DNA of 5,378 nt from the IMG/VR virus record IMGVR_UViG_2671180921_000005, positions 1 through 5,378 of that record; one strand, written 5' to 3'. Each line of letters begins with the position of its first letter. Position 1 is the first letter of the stretch. Position numbers and translations under genes: made by a program. Below the pieces are notes generated by a model. That model searched no databases. It saw only the letters and a list, made by a program, of their open reading frames with translations, and was not told the origin of the DNA. The stretch comes from a virus (Duplodnaviria; Heunggongvirae; Uroviricota; Caudoviricetes). Positions 1 through 5,378 of this stretch are shown one piece after another.

Positions 1-1
1 G

Positions 2-397
2 AACGCCATTCAAGCTATCCAGCAAATCCTTCCAGACCCAACCAAACCAATCGTAGTAACCATTCAGGAACGCAACCGTAGCTTAGACCAAAACCGAAAG
101 CTTTGGGCTTGCCTTGGTGACGTCTCGCGTCAGGTTGAATGGCATGGTCGATGGCTGGATGCAGAAAGCTGGAAGTGTGTGTTTACCGCAGCATTAAAGC
201 AGCGGGACGTTGTTCCTAACCTTGCCGGGAGTGGCTTTGTGGTAATAGGCCAGTCAACCAGCAGGATGCGTGTAAGCGAATTTGCGGAGCTATTAGAGCT
301 TATACAGGCATTCGGTACAGAGCGTGGCGTTAAGTGGTCAGACGAAGCGCGACTGGCTCTGGAGTGGAAAGCAAGATGGGGAGATCGGGCTGCATGA
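2..397 (+). CDS. ninB: NinB recombination protein (Orf-family single-strand annealing/recombination mediator), 5'-truncated by the window edge
   Basis: Frame 2 is open from the window start to TGA at 395-397. The translation (…[130 protein letters not shown]) matches lambda NinB as I recall it almost residue for residue. The ORF track only shows the part from the internal Met at 179. Confidence 0.9.
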   Translation, partial: NAIQAIQQILPDPTKPIVVTIQERNRSLDQNRKLWACLGDVSRQVEWHGRWLDAESWKCVFTAALKQRDVVPNLAGSGFVVIGQSTSRMRVSEFAELLELIQAFGTERGVKWSDEARLALEWKARWGDRAA

Positions 398-921
398 CTA
401 TCAAATCAAATACGCCAGCACACGACAAGGACTGCTGGCAAACGCCGCTTTGGCTTTTTGATGCACTGGATATTGAGTTTGGATTCTGGCTGGATTCGGC
501 AGCGAGCGACAAAAACGCTCTGTGCGCTCACTGGCTAACTGAGGCTGACGACGCGCTAAATTCTGAGTGGATAAGCCACGGTGCAATCTGGAATAACCCA
601 CCGTACAGCAATATCAGGCCGTGGGTGGAAAAAGCCGCTGAGCAGTGCATACAACAGCGACAGACGGTAGTGATGCTTGTGCCAGAGGATATGTCTGTCG
701 GATGGTTCAGCAAGGCTCTGGAGAGTGTTGACGAAGTTCGTATTATCACTGATGGACGGATTAATTTTATCGAACCATCGACAGGGCTGGAGAAGAAGGG
801 AAACAGCAAAGGCTCCATGCTGCTGATTTGGCGACCGTTCATTAGTCCTCGACGGATGTTTACTATCGTATCCAAAGCGGCATTGATGGCGATCGGGCAG
901 GGCGTCAGGAGGGCGACATGA
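394..921 (+). CDS. Phage Dam-family DNA N6-adenine methyltransferase (orphan, no cognate nuclease visible)
   Basis: ORF in frame 1 ending at TGA 919-921. The translation carries the motif-IV signature WNNPPYS (N/D-PP-Y of amino-methyltransferases) and an N-terminal [12 protein letters not shown] segment typical of the small phage Dam family. Start chosen at ATG 394, which overlaps the ninB stop (ATGA) and has GGGGAG 10 nt upstream; ATG 376 is an alternative. The ORF-track start at 334 lies inside ninB and is unlikely. Confidence 0.82.
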
Positions 922-1100
922 GGCGACAACGACGAAGTTTCACCGACATCATCTGTGAAAACTGCAAATACCTTCCAACGAAACGCTCCAGAAATAAACG
1001 CAAGCCAATCCCAAAAGAATCTGATGTAAAAACCTTCAACTACACGGCTCACCTGTGGGATATCCGGTGGCTAAGACATCGTGCGAGGAATACAAGGTGA
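918..1100 (+). CDS. ninE: NinE protein (small, basic, function unknown)
   Basis: 60-aa ORF whose translation ([60 protein letters not shown]) closely matches lambda NinE from memory. Its start overlaps the methyltransferase stop (ATGA at 918-921). Confidence 0.85.
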
Positions 1101-1159
1101 TTGACGCGATGATTTATTTGGGGCTATATTCCTCACGCGCCAGCAAAATCTGGCGTCGG

Positions 1160-1170
1160 GATTAGGAACC
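1160..1170 (+). repeat. Copy 1 of the 11-bp motif GATTAGGAACC (core TTAGGAAC)
   Basis: Exact 11-mer gattaggaacc at 1160-1170, identical to 1326-1336. An inverted copy of the core (gttcctaa) is at 1295-1302. Confidence 0.6.
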
Positions 1171-1192
1171 CCGGATAGAGACCGCGACAGAC

Positions 1193-1216
1193 ACACGCCG
1201 CGAGCGTGTTTTTTAT
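1193..1216 (+). terminator. Candidate rho-independent terminator downstream of ninE
   Basis: acacgc (1193-1198), loop cgcga, gcgtgt (1204-1209) form a 6-bp stem, followed by ttttt-a-tt. The stem is short, so confidence is moderate. Confidence 0.5.
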
Positions 1217-1294
1217 TGTCGTATGCACGCGCACATCTGAATTATGGTGGGGCGTATGGGGGAGCTGAAAAGCTCGCCGGTTGGTTTCCCGGTA

Positions 1295-1336
1295 GTTCCT
1301 AACCCTGTACGTCTCACCACCCGATGATTAGGAACC
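1295..1336. promoter_or_regulatory. Inverted repeat GTTCCTAA-N26-TTAGGAAC immediately upstream of the ORF6N gene; candidate operator or protein-binding site
   Basis: gttcctaa at 1295-1302 is the reverse complement of ttaggaac at 1329-1336. The right arm is part of the exact 11-mer also present at 1160-1170. It lies 40-80 bp upstream of the GTG start at 1378. Confidence 0.4.
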
Positions 1337-1377
1337 TGACGGTGGTGATAGTTTAGAAACCACTCGAGGGCGTCATT

Positions 1378-2058
1378 GTGACAACTCAAATCTCTGTTGA
1401 AACTCTCTCCCCGATCACCCATAACCAGATTCCTGTTATTACCACCGAACTTTTGGCGCAGCTTTATGGCACAGAAATTCTGAACATCCAGGTTAACTTC
1501 ACCAGAAACAAAGAGCGTTTTGTCGAAGGAAAGCACTTTTTTAAAGCATCTGGTGAGGAATTAAAAAATTTGCGACTTACTTTAAGTAAGTCACAAAACC
1601 CCATATCTCCCAAAGCCCGCTCCCTTATCCTCTGGACAGAACGCGGAGCAGCCCGTCATGCAAAAATGCTCGAAACCGATCAGGCGTGGGATGTGTTCGA
1701 AAAACTGGAAGACTGCTATTTCAGCCAGTGCGAGAAAAATACTGGCAAACAAGAGAAGAAGCCCAACGGGCTTTCCGCAAAAGAAACAGACATCCTTGTA
1801 TGGCTGTGGGATTATGCCAACCGCTCACAGGCATTGTTCCGTGAGTTGTATCCCGCATTAAAACTGATTCAGTCTGGCTATTCCGGCATATGCCACGACT
1901 ACGGCTATGAGTTCTCGTATATCATCGGGAGGGCGAGGGGCGTTTTAATTAATCACACGCGGGATATAGATATTTATGAGCCTGACGGGCCGACGAACCT
2001 TCTGGCATGGGAAAGGCTTAATAACAAAGAGTTGCCGCCTTCACTGCATCGCTACTGA
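1378..2058 (+). CDS. ORF6N/KilA-N-type domain protein (antirepressor-like N-terminal domain) with an uncharacterised C-terminal half
   Basis: 226-aa ORF starting at GTG 1378, with GAGGG 7 nt upstream. The N-terminal ~115 aa contain [46 protein letters not shown] and [33 protein letters not shown], the pattern I associate with ORF6N-domain prophage proteins (NFxRNKERFxEGKHYF…ILWTERGA). The C-terminal ~110 aa are not recognised. Confidence 0.72.
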
Positions 2059-2074
2059 CAATTGACAACTTAAC

Positions 2075-2099
2075 AAACCCAGCTTCGGCTGGGTTTTTT
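2075..2099 (+). terminator. Strong rho-independent terminator
   Basis: aaacccagc (2075-2083), loop ttcg, gctgggttt (2088-2096), followed by a run of six T. This is a perfect GC-rich stem with a tetraloop and U-tract, 17 nt after the ORF6N stop. The A-run upstream means it could also work on the minus strand. Confidence 0.85.
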
Positions 2100-2132
2100 A
2101 TTGCTGAATTTTCAATGTGAGAGGACATGACA

Positions 2133-2855
2133 ATGAATGAGCTGATAAATAACAATGCCATCAAAATGACAAGCATTGAAATCGCTGAGTTGGTGGGAAG
2201 CCAACACGGTAATGTCAGAATATCAATAGAACGTCTGGCAAAGCGTGGGGTGATTCAACTTCCTCCAATGCAAAAAGTTGAAAATAAACAAACAATTAGC
2301 CCTAACAAATTCACAAGCGTGTATATATTCGAAGGCGAACAAGGTAAGCGCGATAGTATCATTGTCGTCGCCCAGTTGTCGCCAGAGTTCACCGCTCGCC
2401 TTGTTGACCGCTGGCGAGAACTCGAAGGGGCAACCGCGAAAATCCCACAAACCTTCTCTGAAGCATTGCGCCTCGCGGCTGACCTTGAAGACCAGAAGGC
2501 TGAACTGGAGAAACAGCTTGCTCTCGCAGCACCTAAAGTTGATTTTGCCGATCGCGTTGGCGAGGCCAGCGGAATTTTGATTGGAAACTTTGCAAAGGTT
2601 GTTGGTATTGGTCCAAACAAACTGTTTGCGTGGATGCGCGATCACAAAATCCTTATTGCTTCAGGTTCCCGGCGAAATGTGCCAATGCAGGAATATATGG
2701 ATCGCGGCTATTTCACAGTGAAAGAAACAGCGGTCAACACAAATCACGGAATACAGATATCGTTCACCACAAAAATAACCGGGCGTGGTCAACAGTGGCT
2801 GACCAGAAAGCTGCTCGATAACGGAATGCTGAAAGTAACAGGGGTGGCTGCTTAA
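2133..2855 (+). CDS. Phage antirepressor-like regulatory protein: N-terminal Rha domain plus C-terminal KilAC/AntA-type domain
   Basis: ORF ending at TAA 2853-2855. The N-terminus (MNELINNNAIKMTSIEIAELVGSQHGNVRISIERLAKRGVI) resembles the phage Rha family, and the C-terminal part (PKVDFADRVGEASGILIGNFAKVVGIGPNKLFAWMRDHKIL…) resembles KilAC-type antirepressor domains. Start placed at ATG 2133 because GAGG (2121-2124) sits 8 nt upstream; ATG 2127 (the ORF-track start) is possible but only 2 nt from the GAGG. Confidence 0.78.
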   Translation: MNELINNNAIKMTSIEIAELVGSQHGNVRISIERLAKRGVIQLPPMQKVENKQTISPNKFTSVYIFEGEQGKRDSIIVVAQLSPEFTARLVDRWRELEGATAKIPQTFSEALRLAADLEDQKAELEKQLALAAPKVDFADRVGEASGILIGNFAKVVGIGPNKLFAWMRDHKILIASGSRRNVPMQEYMDRGYFTVKETAVNTNHGIQISFTTKITGRGQQWLTRKLLDNGMLKVTGVAA

Positions 2856-3145
2856 TGGCTAACCTACGCAAAGAAGCGCGCGGCAGAGAATGTCAGGTAC
2901 GTATTTACGGCGTATGCAATGGCAATCCTGAAACTACAGTTCTGGCACATTACCGGATGGCTGGAATTTGCGGAACTGGAATGAAGCCTGACGACCTGAT
3001 CGGCGCATGGGCTTGTAGCGCGTGTCACGATGAAATCGACCGACGCACCCATAATCTCGACAACAAAGACGCCAGACTTTACCACCTCGAAGGCGTGATC
3101 AGGACGCAGGCGATACTGCTGAAGGAGGGGAAGATTAAACCATGA
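2855..3145 (+). CDS. DUF1364-family protein (YbcO-like), Cys-rich putative metal-binding nuclease-like protein
   Basis: 96-aa ORF whose start overlaps the upstream stop (TAATG). The translation MANLRKEARGRECQVRIYGVCNGNPETTVLAHYRMAGICGTGMKPDDLIGAWACSACHDEIDRR… has the conserved Cys cluster and closely resembles E. coli prophage protein YbcO as I recall it. It sits directly upstream of rusA, as in DLP12-type prophages. Confidence 0.8.
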   Translation: MANLRKEARGRECQVRIYGVCNGNPETTVLAHYRMAGICGTGMKPDDLIGAWACSACHDEIDRRTHNLDNKDARLYHLEGVIRTQAILLKEGKIKP

Positions 3146-3504
3146 ACGAATATCAGTTTGTGCTTCCATACCCGCCGTCGCTGAACACCTACTGGCGAAG
3201 ACGGGGAAGCCAATACTACATCAGCGATAAAGGCCAGAAATACCGAAAAGACGTTCAGAAAATCATCCGCCAACTCAAGTTAGACATTTTCACCAAATCA
3301 CGACTCCGCATCAAAGTCATCGCAGACGTTCCAGACTCCCGCCGCCGCGACCTCGATAACATCCTGAAGGGTTTACTCGACTCCCTTATCCACGCCGGAT
3401 TTGCGGAAGACGACGAGCAATTCGATGACATTCGCGTAATTCGTGGTGTGAAAGTACCAGGCGGAAGGCTTGGAATAAAAATCACCGAACTGGAGAACGT
3501 ATGA
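3142..3504 (+). CDS. rusA: RusA Holliday-junction resolvase (crossover junction endodeoxyribonuclease)
   Basis: 120-aa ORF with an ATGA overlap to the upstream gene. Counting residues in the translation gives D70, D72, K76 and D91 within …RRRDLDNILKGLLDSL…AEDDEQFDD…, exactly the positions of the RusA catalytic Asp/Lys residues. The length also matches RusA. Confidence 0.92.
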   Translation: MNEYQFVLPYPPSLNTYWRRRGSQYYISDKGQKYRKDVQKIIRQLKLDIFTKSRLRIKVIADVPDSRRRDLDNILKGLLDSLIHAGFAEDDEQFDDIRVIRGVKVPGGRLGIKITELENV

Positions 3505-3689
3505 ACGCCACAATTCAAACGATACCAGAGCTTCTTATCCAGACACGAGGCAATCAGACCGAAGTGGCGAGGATGCTTTCCTGCGCAAGAGGAGCAGTGC
3601 TCAAGTACAACCGAGACAGCAAAGGCGAGCGTCACGTAATAGTTAACGGAGTCCTGATGGTCACGCCAGGCAAAAAGGGAAGACGATGA
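3501..3689 (+). CDS. ninH: NinH-like small DNA-binding protein
   Basis: 62-aa ORF with an ATGA overlap upstream. The translation (…IPELLIQTRGNQTEVARMLSCARGAVLKYNRDSKGERHVIVNGVLMV…) matches the lambda NinH pattern (…GNQTEVARRL.C.RGTV.KY…H.IVN.VLMV) from memory. Confidence 0.8.
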   Translation: MNATIQTIPELLIQTRGNQTEVARMLSCARGAVLKYNRDSKGERHVIVNGVLMVTPGKKGRR

Positions 3690-4309
3690 GACTCGAAAGC
3701 GTAGCTAAATTTCATTCGCCAAAAAGCCCGATGATGAGCGACTCACCACGGGCTACGGCTTCTGACTCTCTTTCCGGTACTGATGTGATGGCTGCTATGG
3801 GGATGGCGCAATCACAAGCCGGATTCGGTATGGCTGCATTCTGCGGTAAGCACGAACTCAGCCAGAACGACAAACAAAAGGCTATCAACTATCTGATGCA
3901 ATTTGCACACAAGGTATCGGGGAAATACCGTGGCGTGGCAAAGCTTGAAGGAAATACTAAGGCAAAGGTACTGCAAGTGCTCGCAACATTCGCTTATGCG
4001 GATTATTGCCGTAGTGCCGCTACGCCGGGCGCAAGATGCAGAGATTGCCACGGTACAGGCCGTGCGGTTGATATAGCCAAAACAGAGCAGTGGGGGATAG
4101 TTGCTGAGAAAGAGTGCGGAAGATGTAAAGGCGTCGGTTATTCAAGAATGCCAGCAAGCGCCGCATATCGCGCTGTGACGATGCTAATCCCAAACCTTAC
4201 CCAACCCACCTGGTCACGCACTGTTAAGCCGCTGTATGACGCTCTGGTTGTGCAATGCCACAAGGAAGAGTCAATCGCAGACAACATTTTGAATGCGATC
4301 ACACGTTAG
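3686..4309 (+). CDS. Q: Late gene antiterminator Q (lambda Q type)
   Basis: 207-aa ORF with an ATGA overlap to ninH. The translation is near-identical over its length to lambda Q as I recall it (MRLESVAKFHSPKSPMMSDSPRATASDSLSGTDVMAAMGMAQSQAGFGM…), including the Cys4 zinc-binding motif CRDCHG…CGRCKG. Its position immediately upstream of a pR'-like promoter fits. Confidence 0.93.
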   Translation: MRLESVAKFHSPKSPMMSDSPRATASDSLSGTDVMAAMGMAQSQAGFGMAAFCGKHELSQNDKQKAINYLMQFAHKVSGKYRGVAKLEGNTKAKVLQVLATFAYADYCRSAATPGARCRDCHGTGRAVDIAKTEQWGIVAEKECGRCKGVGYSRMPASAAYRAVTMLIPNLTQPTWSRTVKPLYDALVVQCHKEESIADNILNAITR

Positions 4310-4351
4310 CGCCATGATTGCCACGGATGGCAACATATTAACGGCATAATA

Positions 4352-4410
4352 TTGACTTTTTGAATAACTTTGGGTAAATTTGACACCAATAATGGGCGTT
4401 TTTTACCTGT
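4352..4410 (+). promoter_or_regulatory. Late promoter pR' with overlapping qut (Q-utilisation) site and promoter-proximal pause region
   Basis: -35 TTGACT (4352-4357), 17-bp spacer, -10 TAAATT (4375-4380). The string ttgactttttgaataactttgggtaaatttgac is near-identical to lambda pR' (TTGACTTATTGAATAAAATTGGGTAAATTTGAC). Predicted start is about 4387-4388. The early transcribed region contains the -10-like element ccaataat, analogous to the lambda pause-inducing element. Confidence 0.78.
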
Positions 4411-4588
4411 CACTGATGAGTCTCAATAACCTGCCGCCGAGTAGTTTTTATGCTCTGAATTGTATTTGTGTAGTAAACATGCTGACTGCAATGTAATAGA
4501 GGTTTTTTAGCCTGTAACCTCTTGACGGCATTGAATTGCTTTTGTTGTGAGTTGTAAGCCAATGTTATCATCTTGTATAGAGGTGGTT

Positions 4589-5305
4589 ATGAGGGATGGT
4601 GCACTGCTCAGGAGTTCTTCACTTTTTATAGCCTACATGGGATGCCTTGGATGGGGAAGTGCTTATTTCTATGGCTGGGGTACTTCTTTTTACTACGGAT
4701 TCCCATGGTGGATTGTAGGTGCAGGTGTTGATGATGTTGCCAGAAGTTTATTTTTTGCAGTTATCGTCATTGCTATATTTCTTATCGGTTGGGGTATTGG
4801 TGTTGTATTCTTTTTCGCTGTGAAAAGAAAACATTCTATGCAGGAGCTAAATGTATTTCGCCTTTATTTTGCTGTGGAATTATTGTTTGTGCCGGCAATT
4901 ATTGAGTTTTCTATATTGAGACAGAAGATTCAGGTACCTCTTTTGCTACTGTCAGCAGCGATTGCGCTGGCAGTTACAATTTCGATAAGATCTTATGGGC
5001 GATTTTTATCGGTATCATGCTTCTATGGTAAGCCATTTATAAAAAAACATATTTTTGAAGTTGTGATGGTTGCTTTTGTGGCATATTTCTGGCTCTTCTC
5101 ATTTCTGACAGGATATTACAAACCTCAGTTTAAGAAAGAATATGAAATGATTAATTATAATGATGCTTGGTATTATGTTCTTGCTCGTTATGATAATTGT
5201 CTGGTTTTGTCTACTTCTTTTAATGCAGGTAGTAAGAGGTTTGTCATTTATCAATCAGCACAAGACAAGAATCTTCAGGTTGATATTGTAAGGACCAGAA
5301 TTTAA
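4589..5305 (+). CDS. Hypothetical multi-pass inner-membrane protein (about 238 aa; 4-5 predicted TM helices plus ~55-aa C-terminal soluble tail), AT-rich moron cargo downstream of Q/pR'
   Basis: Long ORF in a strongly AT-rich segment, ending at TAA 5303-5305. Start placed at ATG 4589 with a good SD (AGGTGG at 4581-4586, 2-nt gap before the ATG); the ORF-track start at GTG 4547 and ATG 4562 lack an SD. Hydrophobic stretches: SLFIAYMGCLGWGSAYFYGWG, LFFAVIVIAIFLIGWGIGVVFFFAV, LYFAVELLFVPAIIEFSIL, VPLLLLSAAIALAVTISI, IFEVVMVAFVAYFWLFSFLTGYY. No family recognised. The segment has no long ORF on the opposite strand. Confidence 0.6.
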   Translation: MRDGALLRSSSLFIAYMGCLGWGSAYFYGWGTSFYYGFPWWIVGAGVDDVARSLFFAVIVIAIFLIGWGIGVVFFFAVKRKHSMQELNVFRLYFAVELLFVPAIIEFSILRQKIQVPLLLLSAAIALAVTISIRSYGRFLSVSCFYGKPFIKKHIFEVVMVAFVAYFWLFSFLTGYYKPQFKKEYEMINYNDAWYYVLARYDNCLVLSTSFNAGSKRFVIYQSAQDKNLQVDIVRTRI

Positions 5306-5378
5306 TTGGCTGCATAAATAATATTTTTAGTTGCAAGTTGGCTATTCGTAAGAATAGAACCTTAGGCATGCTGAATGC

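Follow-up and report, generated by a model that had tools for sequence, protein, structure and literature searches.

Background

The Ant protein of phage P22 is the archetypal antirepressor, described in the literature as binding repressor non-covalently and inactivating it, and it has also been reported to be active on heterologous repressors. A relative has been studied in the Shiga toxin (Stx) phage phi24B, whose Ant shares, according to Fogg et al., 82% identity with P22 Ant in its last 104 residues, and in which deletion of ant lowered expression from the late promoter (pR'-lux) after norfloxacin to 27-56% of wild type, with partial restoration upon complementation (PMC3064807). Here we analyze a gene of this kind, which spans positions 1378 to 2058 of a 5,378-nucleotide stretch of a Caudoviricetes genome (IMG/VR record IMGVR_UViG_2671180921_000005, positions 1 to 5,378). 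This full stretch is called the window, and coordinates refer to it and to its + strand unless stated. We consider it likely that the open reading frame (ORF) is the ant gene of a lambdoid prophage, orthologous to that of Stx phages, and that it encodes a chimeric antirepressor under an RNA switch of the P1-immI/IsrK type.

Two described systems are relevant to the leader of this gene. In the isrK-orf45-anrP-isrJ locus of Gifsy-1, anrP was shown to be transcribed from the isrK promoter, and a terminator yields the short IsrK small RNA (sRNA). The read-through mRNA is translationally silent and is activated in trans by IsrK, 139-fold, and when the AnrP antirepressor is expressed, antQ-operon transcripts increase and Gifsy-1 is induced (Hershko-Shalev et al. 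2016, PMC4825925). In phages P1 and P7, the c4 RNA blocks translation at a ribosome-binding site (RBS) upstream of ant, and differences in its sequence give rise to heteroimmunity (PMC12197685; PMC8198154). In the literature on Gifsy-1 and P1, C4 is described as being processed out of the leader transcript and IsrK as acting in trans.

Domain composition of the Ant protein

The features of the gene and its product are as follows.

1367-1371, +: Shine-Dalgarno sequence GAGGG, 6 nucleotides before the ant GTG
1378-2058, +: ant, encoding a 226-amino-acid antirepressor of the Stx-phage nin-region type, with a GTG start
1411-1668, +: ORF6N domain, amino acids 12-97
Within ant, amino acids 64-80, +: variable linker
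1744-2055, +: C-terminal block of the P22 Ant type, amino acids 123-226, with Pfam P22_AR_C at amino acids 126-198
2075-2099, +: intrinsic terminator of ant, ACCCAGC-TTCG-GCTGGGT (2075-2096) followed by a T-run

The original prediction, made from the sequence alone, had given the reading frame, its strand, its GTG start, its length of 226 amino acids and its sequence correctly, and had recognized an ORF6N-like N-terminal half, which Pfam places at residues 12-97 (E 2.2e-21). It had further held that the C-terminal ~110 amino acids match nothing. This part was wrong: residues 126-198 match the full profile (1-73) of Pfam PF10548 P22_AR_C ("P22AR C-terminal domain") with an E value of 2.8e-23, and tblastn against phage genomes aligned residues 123-226 with the C-terminus of P22 Ant at 80.8% identity (84/104 residues, E 9e-51). 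In the same search, close relatives of P22 Ant also shared this block. The match to P22 Ant and P22_AR_C is the clear C-terminal homology to a characterized protein that the original prediction had itself named as speaking against it.

Further comparisons place the whole protein in a known family. PHROG 377 ("anti-repressor Ant") matched from end to end (E 6.8e-82), and full-length identity was 84% to the Ant of phi24B, 91% to that of VT2-Sakai and 88% to that of PA28, all with the same start position and the same stop. The ORF6N half resembles AnrP of Gifsy-1 (STM2616), with 76% identity over residues 1-63 and 86% over residues 81-122. Relatives are named "phage antirepressor Ant", "P22AR C-terminal domain-containing protein" or "ORF6N domain-containing protein" in public sources, and the phi24B record already annotates its ant product as having a P22 AR C-terminal domain and resembling ORF6N. 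Among relatives, P22_AR_C is fused to ORF6N, P22_AR_N or KilA-N, which agrees with the domain-swapping "Bro network" (PMC10111431). By these alignments, Ant appears as a chimera of an AnrP-type N-terminal ORF6N module and a P22-Ant-type C-terminal module, both from proteins with a demonstrated antirepressor-type phenotype. This prophage antirepressor gene is genuine, intact and widespread and its family is known, and its homology to P22 Ant, AnrP and phi24B Ant supports the antirepressor role that had been listed as one candidate.

The terminator behind ant, which had been called strong, is indeed so: its hairpin has a predicted energy of -15.1 kcal/mol (z -4.7), and 0/200 shuffles fold as well. 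Together with the surrounding stretch it is identical in phi24B, VT2-Sakai, PA28 and Min27, and its stem-loop and T-run are identical to the "terminator" annotated just after ant in the P22 record. Both the terminator and the C-terminus match P22, so the 3' half of ant was acquired together with its terminator, as a single block, from an immI region of the P22 type. The leader and the 5' half belong to the IsrK/AnrP type.

An ORF6N domain could also mean that Ant is mainly a DNA-binding regulator, or a host-toxic protein of the "Bro/KilA network", with P22_AR_C serving oligomerization only. ORF6N is placed in the KilA-N/Bro-N group of putative DNA-binding domains (Pfam; PMC10111431), and the neighboring Roi family is cited as a DNA-binding protein, yet AnrP, which shares the ORF6N half, induces Gifsy-1. 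The modeled C-terminal domain is a simple helical hairpin of a type often used for dimerization, but P22 Ant shares this block (81%) without any ORF6N and is nonetheless the archetypal repressor-binding antirepressor. Although the effect of the phi24B knockout was partial, ant stands behind an RNA switch that is devoted to antirepressor control in P1, P7 and Gifsy-1, and we find a primarily DNA-binding or toxic role quite improbable.

The original prediction had itself raised the idea of an accessory factor in inter-phage conflict or defense, with the C-terminal domain as a new effector or sensor module. PADLOC gave weak matches to candidate family PDC-S05 (E 1.4e-7 to 5.6e-4), which are domain-level and confined to Ant residues 18-107, that is, to the ORF6N part without the C-terminus. 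Activity of P22 Ant on heterologous repressors makes prophage cross-talk conceivable; however, the C-terminal domain is not new, and no defense-system partner genes were found near ant, where the neighbors are standard nin genes. A new effector or sensor module is not supported, and a defense function is highly improbable.

Putative promoter and RNAs of the leader

The interval between ninE and ant contains the following elements.

1101-1130, +: promoter-like site (TTGACG, 18-nucleotide spacer, TATATT), homologue of the Gifsy-1 isrK promoter
1124-1177, +: c4-a1b1 (Rfam RF03163), 47.8 bits against a gathering score of 46.7
1137-1214, +: IsrK-like sRNA segment (Rfam isrK RF01394), 69.4 bits against a gathering score of 50, E 7.8e-14
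1240-1324, +: C4-type antisense RNA (Rfam C4 RF01695), 67 bits against a gathering score of 45, E 6.6e-12

All three Rfam matches exceed their gathering scores and fall within ~280 bases. VT2-Sakai and PA28 have the same trio ahead of ant, Gifsy-1 has it ahead of anrP, and the public records F004 and APSE-3 already annotate leader RNAs. The predicted C4 fold (-42.9 kcal/mol) has a long closing stem and two inner hairpins. The C4 of the window is the counterpart of P1/P7 c4 and probably also that of Gifsy-1 STnc1160. A mir-74 match of Rfam on the - strand (22.5 bits against 57, E 0.15) was discarded as noise.

The site at 1101-1130 is the best sigma-70-like match of the window (10/12 positions) and ends 7 nucleotides ahead of the start of the isrK model at 1137. 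The window as a whole holds 6 promoter-like sites, with 7.7 expected from shuffles. In the alignment of the window with phi24B, VT2-Sakai, PA28 and Gifsy-1, the -35 element ATTGAC and the -10-containing block GGGGCTATATTCC are invariant; when 11 leaders are aligned, TTGAC stays invariant and the -10 varies. A LexA-box scan found none near the promoter, and its single match with one mismatch (695-710) is no more than chance would give. The scan therefore does not support SOS control of the LexA type, such as that of the antirepressors of N15 or the Gifsy gfo/gfh antirepressors.

The IsrK-like segment ends in a hairpin (1193-1209) and T-run that correspond to the terminator of the isrK model. 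Taken alone this hairpin, with its T-run extending to 1216, is weak (z -1.6, 18/200 shuffles fold as well), but it is validated as the 3' end of the isrK match at 69.4 bits. A consensus scan for terminator-like sites found 6 in the window with 5.4 expected from shuffles; the hairpins at 1193-1209 and 2075-2096 count because homology supports them, not because of the scan. A hairpin and T-run are therefore present where the original prediction had seen an upstream terminator (1193-1216), but they do not insulate ant, as they lie inside the transcription unit, behind the conserved promoter-like site. The element is the terminator or attenuator of an IsrK-like sRNA in an antisense leader, and the "insulating" terminator thus becomes part of an antisense-RNA switch. 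Separate regulation of the gene holds to the extent that ant has its own expression control through the leader, although not through insulating terminators.

This leader was also seen as a mobile cassette, with different downstream genes, at different genome positions and in distant hosts. In PA2, F004 and APSE-3 it is followed by other ORF6N or Bro-N proteins, and in Yersinia phage vB_YpM_39 (YpM39) by a 63-amino-acid and then a 380-amino-acid ORF. The PA2 cassette is located at NC_028449 4642-5540, near the left end of PA2. The IsrK part of the leader matches phage N15 at 28367-28485, just upstream of genes 32-30, in a region that includes a stem-loop annotated as a putative rho-independent terminator. 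This N15 region would correspond to the N15 anti-immunity locus, which is controlled by a small processed RNA.

Complementary sites and their covariation

Six short sites were delineated in the leader.

1162-1169, +: b1, UUAGGAAC, in the IsrK loop, decoy/target site
1178-1184, +: a1, GAGACCG, in the IsrK segment, decoy/target site
1282-1288, +: a', UGGUUUC, in the loop of C4 hairpin 2
1295-1302, +: b', GUUCCUAA, single-stranded in C4
1328-1335, +: b2, UUAGGAAC, target in the ant mRNA leader
1356-1362, +: a2, GAAACCA, target in the ant mRNA leader, 4 nucleotides before the Shine-Dalgarno sequence

The b' site is exactly complementary to both copies of UUAGGAAC (b1 and b2), and a' is exactly complementary to a2. 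The target sites lie 4-50 nucleotides upstream of the ant RBS. Whole-segment RNAduplex gave uninformative long duplexes, and an exact-helix search was used instead. In the window alone, an 8-mer complementary to both sides arose in 57/20000 shuffles of C4, which is moderately unlikely.

Ten leaders were compared (window, phi24B, Min27, VT2-Sakai, PA28, Gifsy-1, PA2, F004, YpM39 and APSE-3); that of N15 was cut too short in the alignment and stands outside the counts. The same layout was present in 10/10, with both C4 segments having perfect complements in the IsrK segment of the same phage and again shortly before the start codon of the gene that follows (a1 of the window by way of G-U pairs). 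The sequences of the sites differ between leaders, and all three copies change together. At least 7 different b sequences occur among the ten, including UUAGCAC/GUGCUAA in phi24B, UUGGCGU/ACGCCAA in VT2-Sakai, PA28 and Gifsy-1, UUCGAAC/GUUCGAA in PA2 and UUCGCAU/AUGCGAA in APSE-3. The b specificity of the window, UUAGGAAC, is absent from the other nine leaders. The leader of PA2 is 95.5% identical to that of the window, yet its b site differs in all three copies. Cognate Watson-Crick runs are at least 7 nucleotides for b and 6-9 nucleotides for a2, against non-cognate means of 3.3 and 4.8, respectively. The a2 site overlaps the Shine-Dalgarno sequence in PA28, F004, APSE-3 and Gifsy-1, and the AUG in YpM39. 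Covariation across phages is strong evidence for the a/b pairing, and the coincidence within the window alone is less so.

These data bear on a different explanation of the two hairpins, namely that they are nin-region terminators of the pR operon (tR2/tR3-like), that ant is expressed by N-antiterminated read-through and that the Rfam matches are inert. Nin-region terminators are overridden by N in classical lambda biology, and ant does lie in a lambdoid nin region, between ninE and roi. According to Fogg et al., the pR transcript of phi24B includes ant, at a place upstream of qut (PMC3064807). While a promoter scan no richer than shuffles also fits this explanation, conservation of the promoter hexamers extends to the isrK promoter of Gifsy-1, for which experimental tests exist. 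The three-way a/b covariation in ten phages would not persist in inert sequence, and the leader travels with different antirepressor genes elsewhere (PA2 near its left end, F004 and APSE-3). Expression by pR read-through past an inert leader is in our judgment unlikely. The two modes are not exclusive, and read-through could add to transcription from the leader.

The short open reading frame of the leader

One further feature lies inside the C4 segment.

1244-1327, +: short ORF of 27 amino acids, inside C4, positional homologue of Gifsy-1 orf45

In the mechanism published for Gifsy-1, orf45 has to be translated and its translation is coupled to anrP by an AUGA overlap (PMC4825925). When the Gifsy-1 frame was mapped in the same manner as that of the window, two in-frame AUGs, 45 amino acids and the ATGA overlap with anrP were recovered as published. 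In the window, in-frame ATGs at 1244 and 1256 match the published orf45 AUGs, and the frame closes at a stop at 1325-1327, with further stops after it. Across the other nine leaders, the orf45-like frame encodes 8-50 amino acids with variable ends, and Gifsy-1 alone of the ten has the ATGA overlap. The Gifsy-1 authors noted that orf45's nucleotide sequence is conserved and its amino-acid sequence is not (PMC4825925), and for this reason a conserved RNA, C4, fits better than a conserved peptide. Since the short ORF of the window is uncoupled from ant and is better explained as conserved RNA, direct occlusion of the ant RBS by C4 is favored over termination-reinitiation coupling.

A model for the control and action of ant

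In the model that we prefer, most transcripts begun at the conserved promoter (1101-1130) would end at the IsrK terminator (1193-1214) as a short sRNA, and those that read through would carry the C4-type RNA (1240-1324). The a' and b' sites of C4 would then pair with a2 and b2 directly upstream of the ant Shine-Dalgarno sequence, blocking access of the ribosome and probably causing polarity. As IsrK carries copies of the same sites (a1 and b1), it can compete for C4, and abundant IsrK would either do so or remodel the leader, turning on translation of ant. We infer, then, that C4 occludes the ant RBS directly and that this is relieved by IsrK through competition or remodeling. The Ant protein would bind and inactivate a CI-type repressor, which would accelerate or reinforce derepression once induction has started, and co-resident lambdoid prophages could be affected by it in trans. 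Homologies, synteny, RNA family matches and complementarity with covariation are observations; repressor binding by Ant, the direction in which C4 and IsrK act in the leader of the window, and the timing of these events are inferred.

Several observations weigh against this model. Deletion of ant in phi24B left superinfection unaffected (Fogg et al., PMC3064807), and the overall phenotype of that deletion is modest. No repressor gene lies within the window. In the leader, a1 of the window pairs with a' only by way of two G-U wobbles, and the 27-amino-acid frame ends 50 nucleotides before the ant GTG, so that the coupling step of Gifsy-1 cannot be copied as such. Structural comparison lends no help either. 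A sequence search of Ant against the PDB found no relative, the best match (E 0.063) being an unrelated cytochrome b subunit, and P22_AR_C is without a solved relative. The full-length AlphaFold2 model, built from 26 aligned sequences, was poor, with a mean predicted local distance difference test score (pLDDT) of 45.8. The C-terminal domain modeled alone gave two long helices and a short one, forming a helical hairpin at a moderate pLDDT of 70.9, and Foldseek of this model against the PDB returned generic helical hairpins only, with no significant fold (all E >= 1). A homologue search with the C-terminal 111 amino acids gave 94 matches, mostly from E. coli and Salmonella and many of them fragments, a diversity too low to deepen the C-terminal model.

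A broader proposal can be offered only tentatively, and it may well prove wrong: that the IsrK/C4 switch operates in this lambdoid lineage without orf45 coupling, by direct RBS occlusion, and that the a/b classes also constitute a heteroimmunity code. If so, the code would determine which co-resident prophages can keep each other's broad-spectrum Ant silent or set it free, and cross-induction of prophages in polylysogenic E. coli would be under a layer of control at the RNA level.

Genomic setting and start codon

The neighbors of ant that are referred to above and below are the following.

918-1100, +: NinE (Pfam)
2133-2855, +: Roi-like gene, with a Rha-type N-terminus and a KilAC/ANT domain (Pfam ANT E 6.4e-33, Phage_pRha E 1.1e-5)
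3686-4309, +: antiterminator Q (Pfam)
4547-5305, +: multi-pass membrane protein gene, likely start at 4562, ~250 nucleotides downstream of Q

A Pfam scan of the window proteins showed a standard lambdoid nin region, in the order NinB (cut by the left window edge), Dam methylase, NinE, ant, Roi-like, YbcO, RusA, NinH and Q. Gene callers pick an ATG matching 2133, not 2127, as the start of the Roi-like gene, and its counterpart is annotated roi in VT2-Sakai, phi24B and PA28. It belongs to the conserved ninE-ant-roi arrangement and not to the ant unit. Two antirepressor-like genes are thereby found in tandem, with the Roi-like Bro-network protein, called Roi or "antirepressor" in relatives, straight after the ant terminator.

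The identical Ant protein is recorded in 88 blocks of the public collection. In 6/6 loci listed there for this protein the gene order is NinE-Ant-Roi-like, and all six are lambdoid prophages with a CI-type repressor bearing an S24 peptidase domain; in L006 and L007 this repressor is a 231-amino-acid protein with HTH_3 and Peptidase_S24 domains. The survey of homologue contexts that had been proposed as a check yielded the conserved ninE-ant-roi order in phi24B, VT2-Sakai, PA28 and these six loci. The unit of leader, ant and terminator (1101-2110) was matched in 1267/5426 complete E. coli genomes, and in 489 of the 1267 at least 80% of it is covered at one place. The window is contained in full in none of the complete RefSeq E. 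coli genomes; the highest coverage is 81%, at 95% identity. The prophage with this best coverage has NinX-NinF where the window has the leader-ant cassette, and this replacement marks the ninE-roi junction as a swap point for alternative modules.

The start codon of ant is polymorphic between A and G at its first position. The original prediction had taken the GTG, which is present, as a sign of low-level expression. This sign is weak: four of the six public loci encoding the identical protein have ATG (L004, L005, L008 and L009), the GTG being shared by the window with L006 and L007. ATG also stands at the ant start in 9/9 aligned more distant relatives, in a start column common to all. The GTG reflects one transition carried by some alleles and is no design feature of the family.

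Two side observations concern other parts of the window. The membrane protein gene occupies the "moron" position where Stx phages carry stx, and no stx was found in the examined flanks of the host prophage of the closest loci. Its product matches PHROG 1521 (E 4.5e-151), which has no function assigned there, and has no match in local Pfam/NCBIfam; precomputed tables give PF27470 TfpB for the identical gene in L007. NCBIfam likewise gave no match for Ant or the Roi-like protein. In addition, a 13-bp inverted repeat followed by a T-run lies on the - strand at 1569-1597, within ant codons 64-74, the most variable part of the protein. The region of amino acids 64-80 shows insertions and deletions in relatives, and a repeated LRV.L..SQN motif makes the Ant of VT2-Sakai 18 amino acids longer. 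The inverted repeat may mark a recombination joint or a binding site, or may be due to chance.

Comparison with known systems

The gene, both of its domains, the regulatory RNAs and the terminator are all of described families and already known. As orthologues have been studied in phi24B, P22 and Gifsy-1, the finding as first posed has little importance. The value of the analysis lies in the corrected reading of the locus as a chimera, in which an IsrK/C4 leader precedes an ORF6N half resembling that of AnrP, followed by the C-terminal half of P22 Ant and its terminator. Such antirepressors affect how fast Stx-type prophages turn lytic, and the specificity classes of the C4 sites could, as a hypothesis, matter for prophage cross-talk.

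The closest likeness is to the Stx phages phi24B, VT2-Sakai (Sp5), PA28 and Min27, in which ant occupies the same ninE-leader-ant-roi slot, upstream of Q, and has the same ORF6N and P22_AR_C architecture, IsrK/C4 leader and terminator. Their Ant proteins are 84-91% identical to that of the window overall and 96-98% in residues 123-226. They differ in the linker (amino acids 64-80) and in parts of ORF6N (65-79% over residues 1-63), and they start with ATG, whereas the window has GTG.

P22 Ant shares the C-terminal 104 residues and the terminator with ant of the window. Its N-terminal ~190 amino acids, of the P22_AR_N type, are replaced in the window by ORF6N (~16% identity). Control in P22 is by Arc, Mnt and the sar antisense RNA (record order mnt-arc-sar-ant); these P22-type immI elements are not present in the window, where ninE and the IsrK/C4 leader precede ant instead.

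Gifsy-1 and the window have homologous promoters, IsrK sRNAs with terminators and C4-like elements, and they share the a/b layout. The C-terminus of AnrP, by contrast, is unrelated to that of Ant (18% identity), and the Gifsy-1 locus is downstream of Q, whereas ant is upstream. The 45-amino-acid orf45 with its AUGA overlap has a 27-amino-acid, uncoupled version in the window, and an Rfam scan found no isrJ match downstream of ant. Thus, the small ORF of the Gifsy-1 mechanism is not conserved, while the C4 target sites beside the RBS are.

The comparison with P1/P7 immI (c4, icd and ant1/2) is based on the Rfam model and the literature. The window differs in having another antirepressor family, no icd-like gene and a lambdoid context. 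In both, a C4-family RNA derives from the same transcript as its target, and there are two recognition segments with duplicated target sets, one lying upstream and the other at the RBS of the gene that follows. The sequence-specific classes of leaders resemble the heteroimmunity of P1 and P7, and the leader of the window follows the a1b1/a'b'/a2b2 logic of P1/P7 immI and of Gifsy-1 IsrK-AnrP.

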